Shown here: in pieces, positions 21,078 to 46,661 of the stretch | How positions within the stretch are numbered: position 1 is the first letter of the stretch | Layout of the letters: every line of letters starts with the position of its first letter | Assembly: GCA_002346475.1 (NCBI GenBank) | Contig: DDZV01000005.1 | Span: forward strand, 2,393 to 66,392 | Direction: 5' to 3' | Length of the DNA stretch: 64,000 nucleotides | Source of the DNA: Acidobacteria bacterium UBA2999 | Lineage (GTDB): Bacteria; Acidobacteriota; Vicinamibacteria; Vicinamibacterales; UBA2999 | Notes under the pieces: generated by a model | What the model was told of the DNA's origin: nothing | Seen by the model: only the letters and a program-made list of their open reading frames with translations | Databases searched by the model: none | Made by a program: the position numbers and the translations under genes

Positions 21078-21736
21078 TCGTTTTCGATCTTGATGGTACA
21101 CTGATTGACTCTCGGCACGATCTAGCTGACGCGGCAAATCAGCTTGTTAAGGAACTAGGCGGCACACCACTGGATCTGGATACAGTGACTCAAATGGTTG
21201 GCGGTGGCGCTGAAACTCTTGTAAGGCGAGCACTTCACGCTGCTGGTCTTCCTTCAGGGACTGAGAAAGAGCTAGAACGATTCCTTCAACTTTACGATAA
21301 TTGTCTTCTTAACCATACCTGTATTTATCCTGGACTAATCGAAACGTTGGTGCAGGCTAGCTGTCTCGCGACACTGTCTCTACTTACTAATAAACCGAGC
21401 GATCCAAGTGAGCGTATCCTTCGTGGGTTAGGGATCCGTAGGTTCTTCGATCAAGTCATTGGTGGAGATAGTCCATGGCCGCGAAAGCCAGACCCGACTG
21501 CATTGTTTCAGCTGATGGCAGCTGCTGGGACTGACCGTTCAAGGACATTGCTTGTTGGAGATTCGTATGTTGATCTTGAAACAGCTAGACAGGCTGAAAT
21601 ACCGTGCTGTTTAGTTTCGTACGGATTTGGTTTCCAAGGCGTTGATCAAGATCGTCTCGATGAGCAAGACTGTATTGCAGTTGATGCAGTTTCTCTTACT
21701 GCGGTGATTAAAAAATTTGTTCGTGAGTTTACCTAG
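21038..21736 (+). CDS. gph: HAD-family phosphatase (phosphoglycolate phosphatase-like)
   Basis: HAD motif I IVFDLDGTLIDS, motif II LLTNK and motif IV GDSYVD. The start is uncertain: the track start overlaps queD by 40 nt, and an in-frame TTG at 21056 is an alternative. Confidence 0.78.
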   Translation: MGNANILGHLQRLIVFDLDGTLIDSRHDLADAANQLVKELGGTPLDLDTVTQMVGGGAETLVRRALHAAGLPSGTEKELERFLQLYDNCLLNHTCIYPGLIETLVQASCLATLSLLTNKPSDPSERILRGLGIRRFFDQVIGGDSPWPRKPDPTALFQLMAAAGTDRSRTLLVGDSYVDLETARQAEIPCCLVSYGFGFQGVDQDRLDEQDCIAVDAVSLTAVIKKFVREFT

Positions 21737-21757
21737 TACTAGTTGTTAAATCTAATT

Positions 21758-22552
21758 TTATGGCTTTGTGCTAAATGGTAGTTCATACGAAAAATAGCCG
21801 AATGCTCCTACAGAGACTTGGTTTTTTGTAATGATTACTGGAACCGAAAACCCAAGGATTGTTTGTGTGTTACCTACGTTCCAACCCGTACGGAAACCAG
21901 GCGCCAAAGTCCACACGGTTGTCCAATTAGTTGCTTCGGCCTGAGCGTCTTCGAATTCAATAACAGCTTCGAGCATTGGCTGGAACATGGGGGAAGCTCG
22001 CCAGATATTACTTAAAGCTAGATGAGGTGTAAAAGTTTTATTGTCTTCGGAAGGTATGTGCGTGAAGCCTGCGTTCCAGTGTAGATAGCTGTTCCCCAAT
22101 TGCTTGCTGAAGGGTAGATTCAATTGCCATCCTGCAGTCCCTCCAAGGTTTTTTGAAGCACTTCCGCTAGGAAGGATTAGTGTGAGCCGAGGCGAGAACG
22201 CTGGCAGAGTAGCTGTCTCAGGCATTGCTTGTAATCGATAGTGTAGTTGTAAGTCGCCGACACCTTGGCCTAGGCCGGTAGTGCTATAAGGTACGGTGTA
22301 AGATAGCTGGTGACGCCAGCCGAGGAGTGGCCACTCCTGCGTAAAGGTTGTTTCCCATTCTGTACGATTCCGAAAGTTCACTCCAACAATATTCTGAAAG
22401 ATACCTGCTTCTTGGTTGAAGGCTTCTTCAACAAAAAAAGAATTGTCAAGCATTTCAAATGGTTGTGTCGTGTTACTACCCTTTGGAGCAGGTTGTGCGG
22501 CAGCAGGTAGTGCTAGCATTGCGAGCAGGATCAATGTTTGCGCTGCCCGCAC
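21758..22552 (-). CDS. Alternative reading: separately translated secreted/outer-membrane beta-rich protein starting at the internal GTG
   Basis: The in-frame GTG at 22552-22550 (codon 220 of the long ORF) would give MRAAQTLILLAMLALPAAA|QPAPKG, a textbook signal peptide. I see no obvious Shine-Dalgarno upstream (…ggcagcatcaaaattatta GTG). Confidence 0.35.
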   Translation of the reverse strand: MRAAQTLILLAMLALPAAAQPAPKGSNTTQPFEMLDNSFFVEEAFNQEAGIFQNIVGVNFRNRTEWETTFTQEWPLLGWRHQLSYTVPYSTTGLGQGVGDLQLHYRLQAMPETATLPAFSPRLTLILPSGSASKNLGGTAGWQLNLPFSKQLGNSYLHWNAGFTHIPSEDNKTFTPHLALSNIWRASPMFQPMLEAVIEFEDAQAEATNWTTVWTLAPGFRTGWNVGNTQTILGFSVPVIITKNQVSVGAFGYFSYELPFSTKP

Positions 22553-23209
22553 TAATAATTTTGATGCTGCCTGTGTTCCAATAGTGATGGTCTGGTGATT
22601 TTCTTTTCGTAGACGGACGCTGTCTGCTACTCCATCACGTGCTTCAACTTGAATAGATTGGCCAGGTTTTAAATCGTGATGTTCGAGAAATCTTAGAAAT
22701 GGTTTGTCTTGATCAATAACTCGAACAACTTTTACCTCAGTATCTAGAGGACATGTCAGAAGACTTTGTGTATTTTGTGGTTTTAAGGATCCTTTCGAGT
22801 CAGGAATCGGATCTCCATGAGGATCGGTAGCTGGACGACCTAACATTTCGTCCATTCGGTCAACCAGACGATCTGATACAGCATGCTCAAGCTGTTCGGC
22901 ATCCTCGTGAACTTCGTCCCATTTCAGTCCCATCACGTTGACCAAAAAAAGCTCAATGAGTCGATGCCTACGTAGGACTAGGGTCGCAAGTTTCTTACCA
23001 GCGGACGTGAGCATTACACCTGCATAGGGCTCGTATTCCACTAGTCCGGACTCAGCCAGTGTCTTGACCATTGTTGTCGCCGTACCAGGAGAAATATCTA
23101 ATGTCGCTGCAAGTTGACCCATCGGCAGGAGTCGTTGTTTAGGCTCTAGTCCTGCAGTGCCTTGGTAGATAGCTTTGAGATAGTCTTCAACAGTGCTTGA
23201 TGGGGACAT
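21758..23209 (-). CDS. DtxR/MntR-family metal-dependent repressor (HTH + dimerisation + FeoA/SH3 domain), continuous in frame with a signal-peptide/TM segment and a ~245-aa beta-rich domain (putative outer-membrane barrel-like)
   Basis: Residues 1-~222 form a DtxR layout: EDYLKAIY, TTMVKTLAESGLVEYEPY, RRHRLIELFL, HPHGDPIP and a FeoA-like end ...ITIGTQAASKLLV. This runs straight into RAAQTLILLAMLALPAAAQPAP. The remaining sequence is rich in aromatic/Gly alternation and ends GAFGYFSYELPFSTKP. The track shows one uninterrupted 483-aa ORF. Confidence 0.7.
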   Translation of the reverse strand: MSPSSTVEDYLKAIYQGTAGLEPKQRLLPMGQLAATLDISPGTATTMVKTLAESGLVEYEPYAGVMLTSAGKKLATLVLRRHRLIELFLVNVMGLKWDEVHEDAEQLEHAVSDRLVDRMDEMLGRPATDPHGDPIPDSKGSLKPQNTQSLLTCPLDTEVKVVRVIDQDKPFLRFLEHHDLKPGQSIQVEARDGVADSVRLRKENHQTITIGTQAASKLLVRAAQTLILLAMLALPAAAQPAPKGSNTTQPFEMLDNSFFVEEAFNQEAGIFQNIVGVNFRNRTEWETTFTQEWPLLGWRHQLSYTVPYSTTGLGQGVGDLQLHYRLQAMPETATLPAFSPRLTLILPSGSASKNLGGTAGWQLNLPFSKQLGNSYLHWNAGFTHIPSEDNKTFTPHLALSNIWRASPMFQPMLEAVIEFEDAQAEATNWTTVWTLAPGFRTGWNVGNTQTILGFSVPVIITKNQVSVGAFGYFSYELPFSTKP

Positions 23210-23238
23210 TACTTCTGTCAGTTTAACCGACCACTACC

Positions 23239-23290
23239 AGTCAAATCATTGACTTTTGCTTCTCATATATATAATTTTGACTAATCAAAA
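23239..23290. promoter_or_regulatory. Two 16-bp (6-4-6) perfect palindromes overlapping a sigma70-like promoter for the MCO-ZIP operon; candidate DtxR-family operator
   Basis: AGTCAA-ATCA-TTGACT at 23239-23254 and TTTTGA-CTAA-TCAAAA at 23275-23290. TTGACT (23249-23254) can serve as -35 and TATAAT (23270-23275) as -10, although the spacing is only 15 bp. The second palindrome ends on the A of the MCO ATG. Confidence 0.45.
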
Positions 23291-24345
23291 TGAGTTGGAG
23301 ACTTATTAATCGAAGAAAATGGCTTCATCTGACTGGTCTAGGTTCGCTGGCTAGTGGATTACTTCAGGGCACTCGACTTGCTGGACAGGTACCTAAGAGC
23401 CAAAGCCATTTATCCGAAAAACATATGGCTGGGGCCATGGGCACTGTTGGCCAGGTGTCATCAATGGATTTTAGTCCTACAAATTTTCTTCGGAGTTGGA
23501 ATTTTTCTGACATGCCGTTACCTGATCGGAATCAGTACTATCGAGAGACGCCAAGACCAGATGGTACGTTGTTTCGGGAATATGAACTCTATGCTTCCGA
23601 TCGTGAGATAGAGATTGCACCTGGAATTTTCTTCCCTGCCTGGACTTTTAATAATCAGGTCCCTGGTCCTACACTGAGAGCAACAGAAGGCGATCGAGTT
23701 CGAATTAATTTTAGAAATCTTGGTTCACACCCTCACACTATCCATTTTCATGGTTGGCACCCACCGGCGATGGACGGTTCATTACCAGGTCAAGAAGTTG
23801 AGCCTGGAGAGACATTTGTGTACGAATTTGATGCAGAGCCATTTGGTTTACATTTGTATCATTGTCATGCGGTGCCTTTGAAACGCCATATCCATAAAGG
23901 TTTGTACGGCACATTCATCGTAGACCCAAAATCAAAAAGAACAGTGGCTGATGAAATGGTGATGGTGATGAACGCCTTTGATTCTAACTTTGATACAGAG
24001 AACGAAGTTTACGCTGTTAACACAGTAGCAAATGCGTATATGCGTGAGCCAATACGAGTTAATGTTGGACAGCTGGTGCGCATCTATTTGGTTAACTTGA
24101 CAGAATTCGATTTGATTAACAGCTTACACCTGCACGGCATGTTTTTTGATGTGTACCCGACTGGTACATCACTCAAACCATCACTGAACACGGACACGCT
24201 TATGTTGTGTCAAGGTGAGCGGGCCATTATTGAGACTACTTTTCGTTATTCAGGTGATTTTATGTTCCATGCCCATCAGAGTGAATTTGCCGAGTTAGGG
24301 TGGATGGGGCTCTTCCGGGCTGAGGAACAGCATGATGTCGCCTAA
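23290..24345 (+). CDS. Tat-exported two-domain multicopper oxidase (T1 copper site in domain 1; NirK-related type)
   Basis: Tat leader NRRKWLHLTGLGSLASG. The copper ligand motifs occur in the order HTIHFHGWH, LYHCHAVPLKRHIHKGL, HLHGMFF, FHAHQSEF. 351 aa fits two cupredoxin domains. Confidence 0.85.
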   Translation: MSWRLINRRKWLHLTGLGSLASGLLQGTRLAGQVPKSQSHLSEKHMAGAMGTVGQVSSMDFSPTNFLRSWNFSDMPLPDRNQYYRETPRPDGTLFREYELYASDREIEIAPGIFFPAWTFNNQVPGPTLRATEGDRVRINFRNLGSHPHTIHFHGWHPPAMDGSLPGQEVEPGETFVYEFDAEPFGLHLYHCHAVPLKRHIHKGLYGTFIVDPKSKRTVADEMVMVMNAFDSNFDTENEVYAVNTVANAYMREPIRVNVGQLVRIYLVNLTEFDLINSLHLHGMFFDVYPTGTSLKPSLNTDTLMLCQGERAIIETTFRYSGDFMFHAHQSEFAELGWMGLFRAEEQHDVA

Positions 24346-25543
24346 TCAAATGATAGTTCGTAATAATCTTTTTTTAGCACTGCTGCCACTAGTGCTTCTT
24401 GGTTGTGTGCTTGCTTTACTTGTTTGGTCACCTTCCACAGAAATTTTTCAGGTTCCCGGCACACCACCTGTTGAGCAATTAACATTTCAGCGTGTCGTGT
24501 TGGATGATGATGGCATTGTGGCAACAGTACTCAATGATGGCCCAGATTCAGTCACGATTGCCCAGGTACAGGTAGACGATGCTTTTTGGATGTTTGAGGC
24601 TAGTAATGGACAAGTCATTGGTCATCTTGGCCGTACGGCACTGCGTATTCCCTATCCTTGGATAGAAGGAGAAGCACATCTACTGAGAGTCCTTACTTCG
24701 ACAGGTGCAACATTTGAGTATGTAATATCGGTAGCTGTAGAAACACCAAAGCCCAGTGTTAGATTATTTGGAGTTTTTGCGTTGATTGGGATCTACGTTG
24801 GTGTGTTACCAGTAGCCATTGGCTTGCTATGGTTTCCTTTTTTAGCACAACTTTCTTCCAGAAGCATGGATTTCTTATTGGCATTAACAGTCGGTCTATT
24901 AGTCTTTCTATTTGTTGATGGATCACATGATGGCCTGGAACTAGCTACGGCATTACCGGAGTCGTTTCAAGGGGCTACTTTGTTTATTGTCGCAACTGCT
25001 GGTGCCTTCTTGTTGCTCGAAGCTGTTAGTGGCTGGCTTCGTGTCAGACGTTACAGATCGACTACTGAATCTAGTAACAGTGCCTGGGTTCTTGCGGTCC
25101 TCATTGCTATTGGGATTGGACTGCACAATTTTGCTGAAGGCTTGGCAATTGGCTCTGCATTTGCTCTTGGCGAAGCTACTTTTGGGATTCTCCTAATTGT
25201 AGGTTTCACTTTACACAACACAACTGAGGGTCTGGCAATTGTTGCGCCTCTTGCTCGAGCACATGTCCCTGTACGTGTCATACGGTTAATCCAGCTTGGG
25301 CTAATCGGCGGCCTTCCAACGATTGCTGGGGCTTGGCTCGGAGGTTTTGTGTACTCACCAGTGTGGTCAGTTTTTTTTCTTGCCTGCGGTGTAGGAGCAA
25401 TTGGGCAGGTTGTTACGCAAGTTACTCGTCAAATAGTCGGTACAAAATCTGTTGTTGGTGAATTAGCTAGTGTGCCAGTTCTGGGAGGACTTGTGACGGG
25501 TTGTGCTGTTATGTATGTCACAGGAATGATTGTGGGGGGATGA
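24332..25543 (+). CDS. ZIP-family divalent metal permease with ~115-aa extracytoplasmic N-terminal domain
   Basis: ZIP signature helices HNFAEGLAIG and HNTTEGLAIV. There is one N-terminal TM helix, then a soluble segment, before the ZIP core. 14-nt overlap with the MCO gene. Confidence 0.85.
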   Translation: MMSPNQMIVRNNLFLALLPLVLLGCVLALLVWSPSTEIFQVPGTPPVEQLTFQRVVLDDDGIVATVLNDGPDSVTIAQVQVDDAFWMFEASNGQVIGHLGRTALRIPYPWIEGEAHLLRVLTSTGATFEYVISVAVETPKPSVRLFGVFALIGIYVGVLPVAIGLLWFPFLAQLSSRSMDFLLALTVGLLVFLFVDGSHDGLELATALPESFQGATLFIVATAGAFLLLEAVSGWLRVRRYRSTTESSNSAWVLAVLIAIGIGLHNFAEGLAIGSAFALGEATFGILLIVGFTLHNTTEGLAIVAPLARAHVPVRVIRLIQLGLIGGLPTIAGAWLGGFVYSPVWSVFFLACGVGAIGQVVTQVTRQIVGTKSVVGELASVPVLGGLVTGCAVMYVTGMIVGG

Positions 25544-25630: not shown

Positions 25631-26050
25631 GTGGATCTAGATAAATCTCGTTGGTCCGGCGAAGGGCAATTTACTGAAACGCTCATTGAGGCATTAAAAG
25701 CACTTCAATCAATATCCTATCTGCTTGTCGAAGACGCGCCTGCAACTCGATCAGACGCGGACTACAATTTCATCAGCAATGAGATGTTTGTGCGGTTTCA
25801 GACGAAACAAAGCATTGAACGTAGGAAATGGATGGGGATCATTCCAGTTCGACGAACGTTCTTACTGCCAGTGATGACGCTTGCCGATCTAGGGAAGTCT
25901 TTTGTTGAGACTGAGACGGTTGGAGAACCTGATTATATCGATGAGGGAATGATTCAGTTTTTAAAGTCTGAACGAATCATTCCACCATATCAGACTAGAG
26001 GTTATAAACTCGTAGAGCTTGTTCGTATCTACGAAGTAAAGGACTCATAA
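25631..26050 (+). CDS. Hypothetical soluble protein
   Basis: 139-aa ORF with a GTG start, no TM helix and no motif I recognise. Confidence 0.4.
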   Translation: MDLDKSRWSGEGQFTETLIEALKALQSISYLLVEDAPATRSDADYNFISNEMFVRFQTKQSIERRKWMGIIPVRRTFLLPVMTLADLGKSFVETETVGEPDYIDEGMIQFLKSERIIPPYQTRGYKLVELVRIYEVKDS

Positions 26051-43276: not shown

Positions 43277-44079
43277 AGATTAGTGTCCTTTCTGCGAAGT
43301 GGGACGATTAATAAATCACCTGTTTCTGATTGCAACTTGACACTAGCCTCGACTCCGTAGAGCTGGCGTACCATGTCTACTGTAAGCACTTCCTGAGTTA
43401 GGCCTTGAGCTAGAATTTTCCCCCTATGCATTAAAACAAGGTTTTCACACAGCGAGGCAGCCATGTTTAGATCGTGTGTTGCTACTACAAGTGTCATGTT
43501 TCGCTCACGGCTTAGCTTTTTAAGAAGTAGAGATATTTCAATTTGATAACCAAGATCTAGAGATGCTGTTGGTTCGTCAAGTAACAAAATATCTGGTGAT
43601 TGTGTAAGGGCGCTCGCGATGATGACACGTTGTTTCTCGCCTCCAGATAAAGTCATGTAGGGGCGGTTGGCTAGATGGTCAGTACCGGTCACTGTTAGGG
43701 CGTTGTACGCAATTTCAATATCAGCTGGACCTTCAAGAGTAAACGGTTTGAGATAGGGATGACGTCCCATCAGTGCCATCTCAAGTACGGTGTAGTCAAA
43801 AGCTGGGTGCGTTTCCTGAGGAACAATGGCAATACACTGTGCGATTTTTCGCTTTGTAATACTTGTTAGAGGTTCGTCGTCAAGTGTAACCTTTCCATTT
43901 TGCGGTCTCTGTATTCCAGCCATTAAGGTGAGCAGGGTTGTTTTCCCGCAGCCATTCGGTCCGATAAGACCAGTTAGAGAACCACTTTTTATCTTGAGCG
44001 ATATGTCACGTAACTTGAAGTTATTAGGAATCGATTTTTGTCTATACCCGAAGGAAATTTTATCGACTTGTAATAACAC
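43273..44079 (-). CDS. btuD: ABC transporter ATP-binding protein (FecE/BtuD type)
   Basis: Walker A GPNGCGKTT, signature LSGGEKQR and Walker B LLLDEPT. Confidence 0.9.
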   Translation of the reverse strand: MLLQVDKISFGYRQKSIPNNFKLRDISLKIKSGSLTGLIGPNGCGKTTLLTLMAGIQRPQNGKVTLDDEPLTSITKRKIAQCIAIVPQETHPAFDYTVLEMALMGRHPYLKPFTLEGPADIEIAYNALTVTGTDHLANRPYMTLSGGEKQRVIIASALTQSPDILLLDEPTASLDLGYQIEISLLLKKLSRERNMTLVVATHDLNMAASLCENLVLMHRGKILAQGLTQEVLTVDMVRQLYGVEASVKLQSETGDLLIVPLRRKDTNL

Positions 44080-46345
44080 GTATTCCTACCATTGCGGTAC
44101 GTCCGGGCGCTGGGAAACCAAACGCTTGTTCGTACGTTGTATTGCTTAAGTTTTCAATCCGTGCCAGAACCTGTGCCCATGGTGCTAATTGAATAGCCCC
44201 TCCGATACTCATCGTCCTGTAGCCATTAGCCATGAATACTCCACCAAAAGTTCCTAATGAAGGTTCAATATCACGAACTTTTCCTCTAAACACAGTCTCA
44301 AAAAATCCGCTCAAACGTTGGTGGGTATAGGTCAAACTGACTGACCCTTGATTCCGTGGTCGGCGAATGAGCGCTTCTCCAACTTTGTAAGGGGGAGGGA
44401 CCTCGCTATTGGTACCGTCAATAGCAATAATTTTTGTGTTTAGCCATGTGTATGAAGTACGTAGGTTAATGCTAGCCAACGGCCTTATTCCTATCGCAAG
44501 TTCAAACCCGTTTGATCGTGCATTTGAAATATTGTCAGTGCGGAATTGGCTAGCATCTCTAAACGAGTTCCCAACGGTGACAATAAGATCGTCATAGGAA
44601 TTGACGAACATGGTTGCGTCGATACTTCCAGTACCACCAGCGAACGTTTGTTGAATACCAATATCTAAACTTCGACTACGCTCTGGTTTTAGGCCAGGAT
44701 TATCTGTAAACGCAATTTCAAATGCATCTGGTGGCCGTATACCAATCCCAGTGCTAATTCGAAGTTTTGTTTGATTGCTACTTGTATTCCTGCTGAGCAG
44801 ATAAGCAAGTGAGACTTTTGGATTCACGGAGATAACCGTCTCTGTGTTGAAGAATGGCCGTGGTGCGAACGGACTAGGATTTGAGACTAGCGCATCTCTG
44901 CGAATCTGCTCTACGCGGACTCCCGCTGCGATAGATAATCGATTGGTAGGCGAGACACGTAGCTCTCCAAAGTACCCTACAAGCCAGCGTTGTACAGGCA
45001 CTTGCTGAAAATTGCTATCCGTAATGAAGGTGCTTCTAGCACTTTCTCTTTGGACTTCAAAACCCGTTGAAAGATCAAGAGTATTAGTTAAGACAGCATC
45101 GATTTGGCTACGAACGGATGTTCTCTTTGACTTGTTGTCAGATGTGCCAAATGGACTAGTAAACGTTGAGTCAAAGTCGATTAAGGTTAAGGCAGTTCGC
45201 TGGCGTAGCTTGTTAGTAAAAGCAGACCATGGTTGTGTCCATTGCAGCCCAAATTGGTGACGAGTATTTATGCCACGAGAGATCCGATCCACACTTGTGT
45301 ACGCACCAATAGGATTGGATCCGTATGGTCCAGGGAAGCCACGCTCAGTCCATGATAATTGTCCGGTGCCGCGTAATTCGACTCCAGACGAACTACGCCA
45401 TCCAGCCCCAAAACCTAGATGTCTGGCTGTTCCATCATCATTACTAACTTGCTGTCCTGTCGAAGCTGCTAGGCCCGTGTAACCATTACTGCGCGTATCT
45501 TCTAAACGTAAGTTCAAAGACCATGGGCCAATGTTTCCGGATGCTATAGCACGTGCGCGCACGGTTCCTTGGCTCCCACCTTCAAGGAGTCCTTCAATTC
45601 TTTCTTGAGTGCTTTGACGCGAAACAATTTGAATGACACCGCCAATAGAATCAGATCCAAACAAAGCACTTTGGGGTCCACGTACAATTTCTATGCGATC
45701 AACATCAACAACTGGAACCTGCGAAAGATCTAGGCTCCCTCCAAAAGCATTGATGCGTACTCCGTCTAGCAGTACGAGCATAAAGTCAGATTCTCCGCCA
45801 CGAGTAAAGAGAGAGGTCAGGCTGTGGAGACCTCCGTTTCTAGTAATGCTTAGACCTGGTACGAATGCCAGTGCGTTATCCACAGTGCGTGACTGTCGTG
45901 CATCTAGCTCTGCACCACTGATAATCGTGATCGTTGAGGAGGCTTCAGATAACGGGAGGCCGGTCTGTGCTGCCGATACGACGAGAGATTCGCTTAGTGC
46001 AGTTATTTGAAGTTTGAGTGATAAATCACGCTTATCCTCAGCAGCAACTGTGATAGTTACTGGTTTTGCGGTAAAGCCATGCAGTACAACACGCAGTTTG
46101 TAGGTTCCTGCAGGGAGATTAGTGAGTGTGAAGTGCCCATTAGTGTCTGTGTAGGTTTCGCTGATACCAGGCTTGACGCCAGTGACCACAATTCTGACAG
46201 TTGGGACTGGGTACCCATCTGGATCGAGGACAGTCCCTCTTATTTCAGCTGCGTGAGTGGGAAGTGAAATGCTGCAGAAGAGCAAAGAAAGCACAAGTAT
46301 AAGGAATAGAGTGCTTTGTTGGTTCGGAAAACCCGGCCAGGTCAT
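44060..46345 (-). CDS. TonB-dependent receptor with N-terminal carboxypeptidase-regulatory-like domain
   Basis: Signal peptide from ATG 46345 (MTWPGFPNQQSTLFLILVLSLLFCSISLPTHA|AE), then an IRGTVLDPDGYPV Ig-like domain, a plug (DRIEIVRGPQSALFGSDSIGGVI) and a long beta-barrel. The track GTG at 46381 lies inside a leader hairpin. Confidence 0.87.
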   Translation of the reverse strand: MTWPGFPNQQSTLFLILVLSLLFCSISLPTHAAEIRGTVLDPDGYPVPTVRIVVTGVKPGISETYTDTNGHFTLTNLPAGTYKLRVVLHGFTAKPVTITVAAEDKRDLSLKLQITALSESLVVSAAQTGLPLSEASSTITIISGAELDARQSRTVDNALAFVPGLSITRNGGLHSLTSLFTRGGESDFMLVLLDGVRINAFGGSLDLSQVPVVDVDRIEIVRGPQSALFGSDSIGGVIQIVSRQSTQERIEGLLEGGSQGTVRARAIASGNIGPWSLNLRLEDTRSNGYTGLAASTGQQVSNDDGTARHLGFGAGWRSSSGVELRGTGQLSWTERGFPGPYGSNPIGAYTSVDRISRGINTRHQFGLQWTQPWSAFTNKLRQRTALTLIDFDSTFTSPFGTSDNKSKRTSVRSQIDAVLTNTLDLSTGFEVQRESARSTFITDSNFQQVPVQRWLVGYFGELRVSPTNRLSIAAGVRVEQIRRDALVSNPSPFAPRPFFNTETVISVNPKVSLAYLLSRNTSSNQTKLRISTGIGIRPPDAFEIAFTDNPGLKPERSRSLDIGIQQTFAGGTGSIDATMFVNSYDDLIVTVGNSFRDASQFRTDNISNARSNGFELAIGIRPLASINLRTSYTWLNTKIIAIDGTNSEVPPPYKVGEALIRRPRNQGSVSLTYTHQRLSGFFETVFRGKVRDIEPSLGTFGGVFMANGYRTMSIGGAIQLAPWAQVLARIENLSNTTYEQAFGFPAPGRTAMVGIRVITSR

Positions 46346-46399
46346 TCTGTCTCCCCTTGGTGTCCAACGCACCAGACTCACGATTTTGCAGTCGTGAAA

Positions 46400-46630
46400 A
46401 AGGAATAAACGCTAGGGCCAGGTTTCCTGACTTGCAGATTCTTACGATTTGGTTAGTCTTCCCATGTTCTACAGTGCTGGTGATAAATTTAGCAATGCTG
46501 TAGCACGGACCATGATAGACCCGTTATACACAGTGACTTATATGACCAAGATCTTTCTGCTTACAGTGGCGGGACCGTGTGGGCATTAAACCCACTTCCC
46601 TGTTCCCTTACGGTATCAGTTGTAGCTATC
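46400..46630 (-). promoter_or_regulatory. Cobalamin (B12) riboswitch
   Basis: The minus-strand RNA contains AAGGGAAC, a GUGGGuuuaauGCCCAC hairpin, ACGGUCCCGCCACUGU, CACUG...GGGAAGAC, and the B12 box AAGUCAGGAAACCUGGCC (forward coordinates 46416-46431). A downstream hairpin TCACGA-n8-TCGTGA (46378-46397) and the SD AAGGGGAGA precede the receptor ATG. Confidence 0.8.
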
Positions 46631-46661
46631 AGTATAGCACGTTAAAATTTCAAGCGATTCC

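Follow-up and report, generated by a model that had tools for sequence, protein, structure and literature searches.

How do a cytoplasmic transcription factor and an exported protein come to share one reading frame, and what is made from it? The question is raised by a gene in a 64,000-nt stretch of contig DDZV01000005.1 from Acidobacteria bacterium UBA2999 (the window, taken at its whole length; 46% GC), in which a DtxR-family repressor runs without a stop codon into a signal peptide and a C-terminal domain of beta-barrel character. An earlier note on this DNA offered two readings: a DtxR protein tethered to the membrane in ToxR/CadC fashion, with a sensor domain outside the cytoplasm, or a regulator and an exported protein whose separating stop had been lost or had never existed, the second protein being made from an internal start. 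Here we find the fused gene conserved across the genomes of 61 or more acidobacterial species, and we argue that it probably encodes a natural polyprotein, the exported barrel half of which is split off the repressor by signal peptidase I (SPase I).

One reading frame with two halves

Translation of the window yields a single open reading frame (ORF) of 483 amino acids on the minus strand (Table 1), with its stop codon at 21758-21760. Together with the Pfam matches, this confirms the earlier observation that no stop lies between the end of the repressor's FeoA/SH3 domain (...AASKLLV, ending at V220) and the signal peptide; the frame continues into RAAQTLILLAMLALPAAA|QPAP, where the bar marks the predicted cut, and then through 245 more residues. 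The N-terminal winged-helix domain (residues 5-65) matches PF01325 with 46.9 bits against a cut-off of 26, and the metal-binding and dimerisation domain (residues 68-137) matches PF02742 with 107.8 bits. Foldseek and phmmer returned Mn-dependent repressors as the best structural matches of the N-terminal part, 5zr6 and 5zr4 coming before SloR, ScaR, MtsR and IdeR. Identity to 5zr4 is 38% over residues 6-220 (E 3.7e-42), and AASKLLV pairs with the final element of that protein (...AAQAIWV) in the alignment. The residues at the ligand positions (H82, E86, H101, E105, E108, H109, D129, H131 and D133) are invariant in all 62 sequences of the fused set, which comprises 61 related loci and the window. 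In this repressor family the position of DtxR Met10 is occupied by Asp or Asn and that of Cys102 by Glu, which we take to be the Mn-type DtxR/MntR pattern. The NCBIfam equivalog cut-off for MntR/DtxR was not reached (best match NF047407 MntR, 169.5 bits against 350), and the window repressor is best classed, on its sequence, as a member of the DtxR/MntR family, yet as the equivalog of no named regulator.

The C-terminal 264 amino acids have 4039 homologues at E<=1e-3 in a sequence search, and about a quarter of the best 120 homologues of this part also carry DtxR domains, at lengths of 410-462 amino acids. The full-length structure was predicted with AlphaFold2 (AF2) from a 94-sequence alignment, giving a mean predicted local distance difference test (pLDDT) score of 86.6 and values of about 90-98 over barrel residues 260-478; in the model, residues 215-238 form a single, less confidently predicted helix without packing contacts to either domain. 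With this predicted structure as the Foldseek query, the barrel matches FapF (5o68) with an E-value of 2e-9 and a TMt of 0.64-0.67. The C-terminal part is accordingly modelled, and here predicted, as a 12-stranded outer-membrane barrel with a FapF/COG4313-like fold, in keeping with the beta-barrel-like periodicity that the earlier note had read from its 245 residues. The many homologues and the confidently modelled barrel argue that the long open frame is not a product of chance read-through. A sequence search of the barrel against the PDB gave no meaningful match, and a fold search was required. The window protein also stays below the Pfam gathering score of PF13557 (11.2 bits against 22, E 0.38), which makes its barrel a distant or unclassified sister family; a minority of close barrel homologues do carry precomputed PF13557 matches. 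Before strand 1 lies a conserved N-terminal segment, PFE(M/I)LDNSF(F/L)VEEAFNQE (PFEILDNSFLVEEAFNQE), which is probably the counterpart of a lumen plug. The protein ends in ...YFSYELPF, with Y472, S474, E476 and F479 invariant in the 94-sequence alignment. The barrel half is an orthologue, at 45-60% identity, of stand-alone outer-membrane barrels with signal peptides of their own, and it has the general features of such proteins, namely a conserved A-x-A|Q site for SPase I and a C-terminal aromatic motif, except that its signal peptide is internal and not N-terminal.

A scan covering one genome per species found 391 related loci, and the best 80 were analysed at the DNA level. Almost all of these belong to metagenome-assembled genomes (MAGs) of the Vicinamibacterales (Acidobacteriota) with 65-69% GC, assembled in many projects. 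The repressor-barrel ORF is continuous and in frame in 61 of the 80 loci, a fraction that is biased upward since the loci were ranked by their match to the whole query, whereas the absolute number of fused genomes is unaffected; barrel identity to the window in these loci is about 42-58%. Six further loci, mostly from long-read MAGs, have the same junction and a frameshift deeper in the barrel and are taken to be errors or recent pseudogenes. Two co-directional genes are found in ten loci and convergent genes in three. Orthologues with a stop codon and a ribosome-binding site consistently at the junction were not seen in this comparison, and the earlier suggestion of a stop lost through a local mutation or error fails against the intact ORF of the 61 loci. 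Source annotations name the fused proteins, of 450-500 amino acids, merely DtxR regulators, and the transporter half has therefore been missed. In a 50%-identity representative library the fused family is collapsed to one full-length representative plus fragments, which gives no usable count. The window itself is low in GC beside its relatives (46% against 65-69%); synteny and protein identities of 60-86% place it among Vicinamibacterales-type genomes, of which it seems to be an exceptionally GC-poor relative.

The loci with two co-directional genes (L064, L068-L075 and L077) illustrate what the fused form lacks. Their repressors end in ...AASKLLVE plus 3-8 residues, followed by a stop, and the barrel's own start, usually ATG, overlaps this stop or lies within a few nucleotides of it (TGACATG, TGATATG, TCATGA). 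The barrels of these loci begin with a canonical signal peptide whose n-region is positively charged, as in MHARIVVIALAALVAAAPARA|Q. Fused genes are without both the repressor stop and the barrel's own start. In a neighbour-joining tree of the 220-residue repressor part, which is unbootstrapped and midpoint-rooted, fused genes stand on both sides of the root, the window among them, and the two-gene loci form one clade nested inside the fused forms. This arrangement argues that the fused state is old, although the uncertain rooting allows either direction, fusion or fission.

Beyond this family the 50%-identity representative library brought to light a fusion with another partner. P0135 (951 amino acids; L084:132-2987; found on three contigs from two samples) has the same repressor and junction followed by CarboxypepD_reg, Plug and TonB-dependent receptor domains, and P0268 (952 amino acids), 68% identical to P0135, is the same kind of TonB-dependent receptor fusion. 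These two proteins indicate that a second class of outer-membrane transporter can fill the C-terminal position. The closest relatives of the window barrel, P0001 and P0002 (L081:3486-4325 and L083:4001-4840), stand alone in unrelated surroundings, between a tetratricopeptide repeat (TPR) protein and a pyrroloquinoline quinone (PQQ) dehydrogenase. A remnant of the repressor's SH3 tail survives at their N-termini (MRLGRSEVRVATFGARTAPALLV...), and they thus appear to have arisen from a fused gene by partial duplication. A further barrel homologue in the representative library, P0148 (420 amino acids), lies behind an unrelated N-terminal extension of 134 residues with no Pfam match, followed by the signal peptide LVLLILAATAPA|QQ; the extension is either a further case of fusion to a cytoplasmic domain or the result of a start called too far upstream, in a genome rich in GC.

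The junction and the products of the fused gene

The segment that joins the two halves has the conserved appearance of a cleavable signal peptide. Relative to the predicted cut, and counted over 58 of the fused genes, Ala occupies position -1 in 55, Ala or Val position -3 in 51, and Gln position +1 in all 58; Lys at -22, within the SH3 tail, is likewise present in every one. Positions -4 to -6 hold small or helix-breaking residues, and the A-x-A|Q site is conserved equally in fused and split forms. In 58 of the 62 fused genes exactly 18 residues separate LLV from the site, whereas the stretch after the site varies greatly in length, which points to a length constraint on the segment up to the site. 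The hydrophobic helix has a maximum 19-residue Kyte-Doolittle mean of 1.6-2.1, in the transmembrane range.

We consider it probable, on these grounds, that the gene encodes a polyprotein. In this account we infer that the C-terminal part is exported and cleaved off, and we likewise infer what becomes of the tail, which metal is sensed and that the genes are repressed. Translation would start at the repressor ATG (23209) and run straight through to 21761, as no stop lies in between. The segment K217 to A238, following the SH3/FeoA domain, would act as an internal signal sequence of N-in/C-out orientation, and the Sec machinery, probably via the signal recognition particle (SRP), would move the C-terminal 245 residues into the periplasm, where SPase I would cut behind A-A-A238. 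The mature protein, beginning with Q239, would become a plugged channel of 12 strands in the outer membrane. The Mn-type DtxR/MntR repressor would remain on the cytoplasmic side with a hydrophobic C-terminal tail of about 18-22 residues, and would be either tethered to the inner membrane or freed once the tail is degraded. In its metal-bound form it may bind a conserved palindrome in the 80-bp divergent promoter region and so repress its own gene, hence the channel, together with an operon for a multicopper oxidase (MCO) and a ZIP permease, which would constitute an autoregulated metal-uptake module. The TonB-dependent receptor, as the partner in the variant fusion, must likewise reach the outer membrane.

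Several observations weigh against this account. The window junction has a GTG followed by Arg, so that internal initiation is possible in this organism; 54 of the 62 fused genes contain some ATG, GTG or TTG between codons -10 and +5, largely because the segment is rich in Val; and both TonB-dependent receptor fusions have an in-frame ATG at the junction, for which reason they provide no argument against internal initiation. To our knowledge, export and SPase I cleavage after a folded cytoplasmic domain of 220 residues have rarely been documented in bacteria. Moreover, the fusion may have persisted by neutral evolution and bring no advantage: after stop and start had been lost, a stop could not return, because it would destroy the signal peptide and with it export.

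The first three of these points lend themselves to a reading with two products, in which translation from an internal start at or near the junction (GTG 22552 in the window), with MRAAQTLILLAMLALPAAA as the signal peptide, accounts for most of the barrel. The full-length fusion would then follow inevitably from the loss of a stop but be of no importance. The existence of relatives in the two-gene state is also in its favour. The GTG of V220 and the lack of a Shine-Dalgarno (SD) motif upstream of it, both described earlier, were confirmed in a motif scan, and the missing motif is weak evidence since, even with loose matching, SD-like motifs precede just 17 of the window's 46 long ORFs. SD use being so sparse, the motif was dropped as a discriminator. 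Against this reading speaks the codon content of the junction across the fused genes. The junction Val is encoded by GTG in 27, GTC in 27, GTT in six and GTA in two of the 62; with the window left out, GTG is used in 26 of 61 genes, compared with a background of 40.8% among the Val codons of the same genes (p=0.80). A start-capable codon occurs at no single junction position in more than 27 of the 62 genes, and eight species (L004, L009, L026, L027, L030, L034, L050 and L056) have no ATG, GTG or TTG at all from codon -10 to +5. ATG is depleted, being present in 8 of 62 junction windows (13%) as opposed to 28% of control windows from the same genes. On these counts the internal GTG was rejected as a conserved start, and an internal start at the junction is, as far as codon content can tell, not conserved among the fused genes. 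With no start codon near the junction, some of the species would make the barrel only within the fusion. In 35 of 58 fused genes the six residues that follow LLV have no net positive charge (net charge <=0) and would thus form a poor n-region for an internal start; the invariant Lys at -22 would supply the positive flank of the signal peptide instead. Furthermore, ribosomes translating the repressor read into the barrel regardless, and since no stop separates the halves the fusion is necessarily translated in all species. We judge it unlikely that the barrel comes mainly from internal initiation, though this is the strongest of the rival readings. Of the earlier proposal of a lost stop with an internal start, the existence of two-gene relatives has thus been borne out, but the fused ORF is intact in 61 of 80 loci and the internal start is not a shared feature.

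The other earlier reading, an uncleaved bitopic regulator of the ToxR/CadC type that is anchored in the inner membrane and whose beta domain acts as a periplasmic sensor controlling the DtxR domain, appears quite improbable. It would account for the N-in topology with a single hydrophobic helix of transmembrane character and for the continuous helix over residues 215-238 in the AF2 model, and transmembrane one-component regulators are widespread (PMC10269533). The C-terminal domain, however, has its orthologues among secreted proteins that stand alone and start with a signal peptide, and its predicted 12-stranded fold and C-terminal aromatic motif are those of an outer-membrane barrel. The A-x-A|Q site and the small residues at -4 to -6 are conserved alike in fused and split forms, and a nearly invariant site of this kind makes release by cleavage likelier than a permanent bitopic protein. 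In some species no more than about 3-5 linker residues follow the site, too few to bridge the periplasm to a barrel in the outer membrane, and in the variant fusion the partner is a TonB-dependent receptor. Of this reading a membrane association of the repressor stays plausible, whereas the C-terminal part is better described as an outer-membrane barrel orthologue than as a sensor.

The notion that the join is peculiar to the window, produced by a misassembly, a wrong base call or a recent inactivating mutation, can be given next to no credence: two-gene relatives exist and six related loci, mostly long-read MAGs, have frameshifts in the barrel, but the idea is effectively refuted by the same in-frame junction in 61 genomes of separate species, obtained independently in many studies and on many sequencing platforms, by its recurrence in many metagenome proteins, and by purifying selection on both halves, seen in the conserved metal ligands, barrel motifs and cleavage site.

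If the gene does encode a polyprotein, the fusion could also be adaptive. The repressor would then be made in stoichiometric amounts with the channel, be brought to the inner membrane by the signal peptide of that channel, and become active, as a diffusible or locally acting repressor, only after Sec translocation, SPase cleavage and possibly intramembrane degradation of the tail, so that successful export would be reported to the promoter. We regard this extension as speculative and give it a small chance. Were it true, the proteases of general secretion would serve a biogenesis-coupled feedback loop, which further outer-membrane transporters may share, as the TonB-dependent receptor fusion suggests.

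Known systems and the meaning of the fusion

Each component of this protein is of a known kind, while the conserved combination and the processing it implies appear to be new. The DtxR/MntR regulators (5zr4/5zr6, SloR, ScaR, MtsR, IdeR and DtxR) have the same three-domain layout as residues 1-220, with the ligand positions conserved, and have a palindromic AT-rich operator in their own promoter, like the candidate described below. The characterised members that we found are, however, soluble proteins of about 215-230 amino acids that end just past the SH3 domain, whereas here the SH3 domain runs into a signal peptide and an exported domain of 245 residues. In the literature searched, a fusion of a DtxR-family regulator with an outer-membrane protein is nowhere described, and searches on MnoP-type Mn channels, on polyproteins with internal signal peptides, on FbcH, and on Vicinamibacter and manganese brought up nothing on this architecture. 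The nearest processing precedent may be the FbcH cytochrome b-c1 precursor of Bradyrhizobium, in which a single ORF with an internal signal sequence is reportedly cleaved by signal peptidase to two mature proteins. Both FbcH products reportedly belong to a single complex, as subunits in the membrane or the periplasm, whereas those of the gene studied here would be a transcription factor and an outer-membrane channel, two membranes apart.

For the barrel, the COG4313/Phenol_MetA_deg (PF13557) proteins and the FapF channels share the predicted fold, a 12-stranded barrel after a conserved N-terminal segment. This segment plugs the lumen in Pput2725 and FapF (PMC4493636, PMC5557850), and the plugged 12-stranded fold of the FapF type is also found in COG4313/PF13557 channels (PMC4493636). 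These channels serve the uptake of hydrophobic compounds or the secretion of amyloid, whereas the context in the window, with an MntR-type regulator, a ZIP permease and an MCO, points to metal uptake; a further difference is the internal position of the signal peptide in the window protein. In ToxR, CadC and TcpP, too, a cytoplasmic DNA-binding module at the N-terminus is followed by a single hydrophobic segment and then by an extracytoplasmic part (PMC10269533). Their DNA-binding modules are of another family, and their extracytoplasmic part is a periplasmic sensor, compared with an outer-membrane transporter behind a signal-peptidase site here. The terms DtxR, MntR and Fe_dep are absent from the main text of the same survey of transmembrane regulators (PMC10269533).

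If processed as proposed, the protein would offer a widespread natural case of a cytoplasmic transcription factor and an outer-membrane protein derived from one polypeptide that is split by the general signal peptidase. It would imply that Sec/SRP and SPase I can cope with a folded cytoplasmic domain of 220 residues ahead of a cleavable signal peptide, and that a DtxR-family regulator has gained a membrane-associated stage of life. It would also provide a simple model for how operon neighbours fuse and split again, with fused, co-directional and convergent forms within one order. In addition, it flags a conserved uncharacterised, putative metal-uptake module, made up of an outer-membrane channel, a two-domain MCO and a ZIP permease, in the Vicinamibacterales, an abundant soil lineage.

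A side observation concerns the residue behind the predicted signal-peptidase site. Gln at +1 (Gln239, window positions 22493-22495) is invariant in 94 of 94 family members, fused and stand-alone alike. This acidobacterial pattern recalls the 'Q-rule' of the Bacteroidetes, where an N-terminal Gln is associated with pyroglutamate formation (PMC5837995).

The divergent operon and its predicted operator

The genes that accompany the fused gene, and the elements between them, are listed in Table 1. Within the 80 loci the MCO gene adjoins the fused gene in 65 and the ZIP gene is kept in 63, and QueD lies downstream in 66. The sequence TTTTGAC-N4-6-TCAAAA occurs in 59 of 66 related upstream regions, all from genomes of 65-69% GC, and overlaps a -35-like TTGACA; the same palindrome is present upstream of the TonB-dependent receptor fusion in L084 as TTTTGAC-TAA-TCGAAA. 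The conserved AAAGTCAA element of the related intergenic regions corresponds to TTGACTTT, a -35-like box for the opposite promoter. The palindrome fits a shared operator of an autoregulated metal-uptake module, as predicted from its sequence and position.

Table 1. Positions in the window of the fused gene, its parts, the intergenic elements and the divergent genes.
Feature	Position	Strand	Basis
483-residue ORF: repressor, internal signal peptide and barrel precursor	21758..23209	-	ORF; continuous in 61/80 related loci
DtxR-family N-terminal winged-helix DNA-binding domain, residues 5-65	23015..23197	-	Pfam PF01325 (Fe_dep_repress), E 3.3e-12
Metal-binding and dimerisation domain, residues 68-137	22799..23008	-	Pfam PF02742 (Fe_dep_repr_C), E 2.7e-31
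FeoA/SH3-like C-terminal repressor domain, residues 149-221, last element AASKLLV	22547..22765	-	Pfam PF04023
Junction and internal signal peptide, K217-LLV-RAAQTLILLAMLALPAAA238	22496..22561	-	AF2 helix 215-238; conserved site motif
Predicted SPase I cut, A238|Q239	between 22496 and 22495	-	conserved A-x-A|Q motif
GTG codon of V220, candidate internal start	22550..22552	-	GTG in window; 27/62 across fused genes
Mature outer-membrane beta-barrel, Q239-P483 (predicted)	21761..22495	-	AF2, Foldseek, weak PF13557, homologues
Palindrome AGTCAA-N4-TTGACT containing the conserved AAAGTCAA element; TTGACT is a -35-like box on the + strand	23239..23254		sequence comparison
Palindrome ATTTTGA-N4-TCAAAAT, predicted DtxR-family operator; overlaps annotated MCO ATG (23290)	23274..23291		sequence and conserved element
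Two-domain MCO with Tat-like N-terminus, divergent	23290..24345	+	Pfam Cu-oxidase_3, Cu-oxidase_2
ZIP/ZupT-like metal permease with N-terminal extension; overlaps MCO stop	24332..25543	+	Pfam Zip; NCBIfam ZupT weak match

A scan of 21600-23400 for sigma-70 promoters and terminators returned one intragenic promoter-like match, fewer than in shuffled sequences, and no terminators; comparing conserved motifs between loci told more. As in the window, the MCO start codon abuts the palindrome in many related loci, and in several of them the repressor ATG lies only about 10-15 nt past a -10-like box. The two positions hint at leaderless transcripts, or transcripts with a very short leader, on both sides of the intergenic region.

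Downstream of the ZIP gene, an ORF of 139 amino acids (25631-26050, plus strand) has no Pfam or NCBIfam match. It recurs near the locus in 28 of the 80 cases, at 43-59% identity, and may belong to the module of the fused gene, MCO and ZIP permease. An Rfam scan of the window detected no rRNA and no Mn riboswitch, its only matches being one tRNA and a cobalamin riboswitch (RF00174, 76.8 bits) at 46400-46648 on the minus strand, which lies directly upstream of an ORF of 773 amino acids (44060-46381, minus strand).

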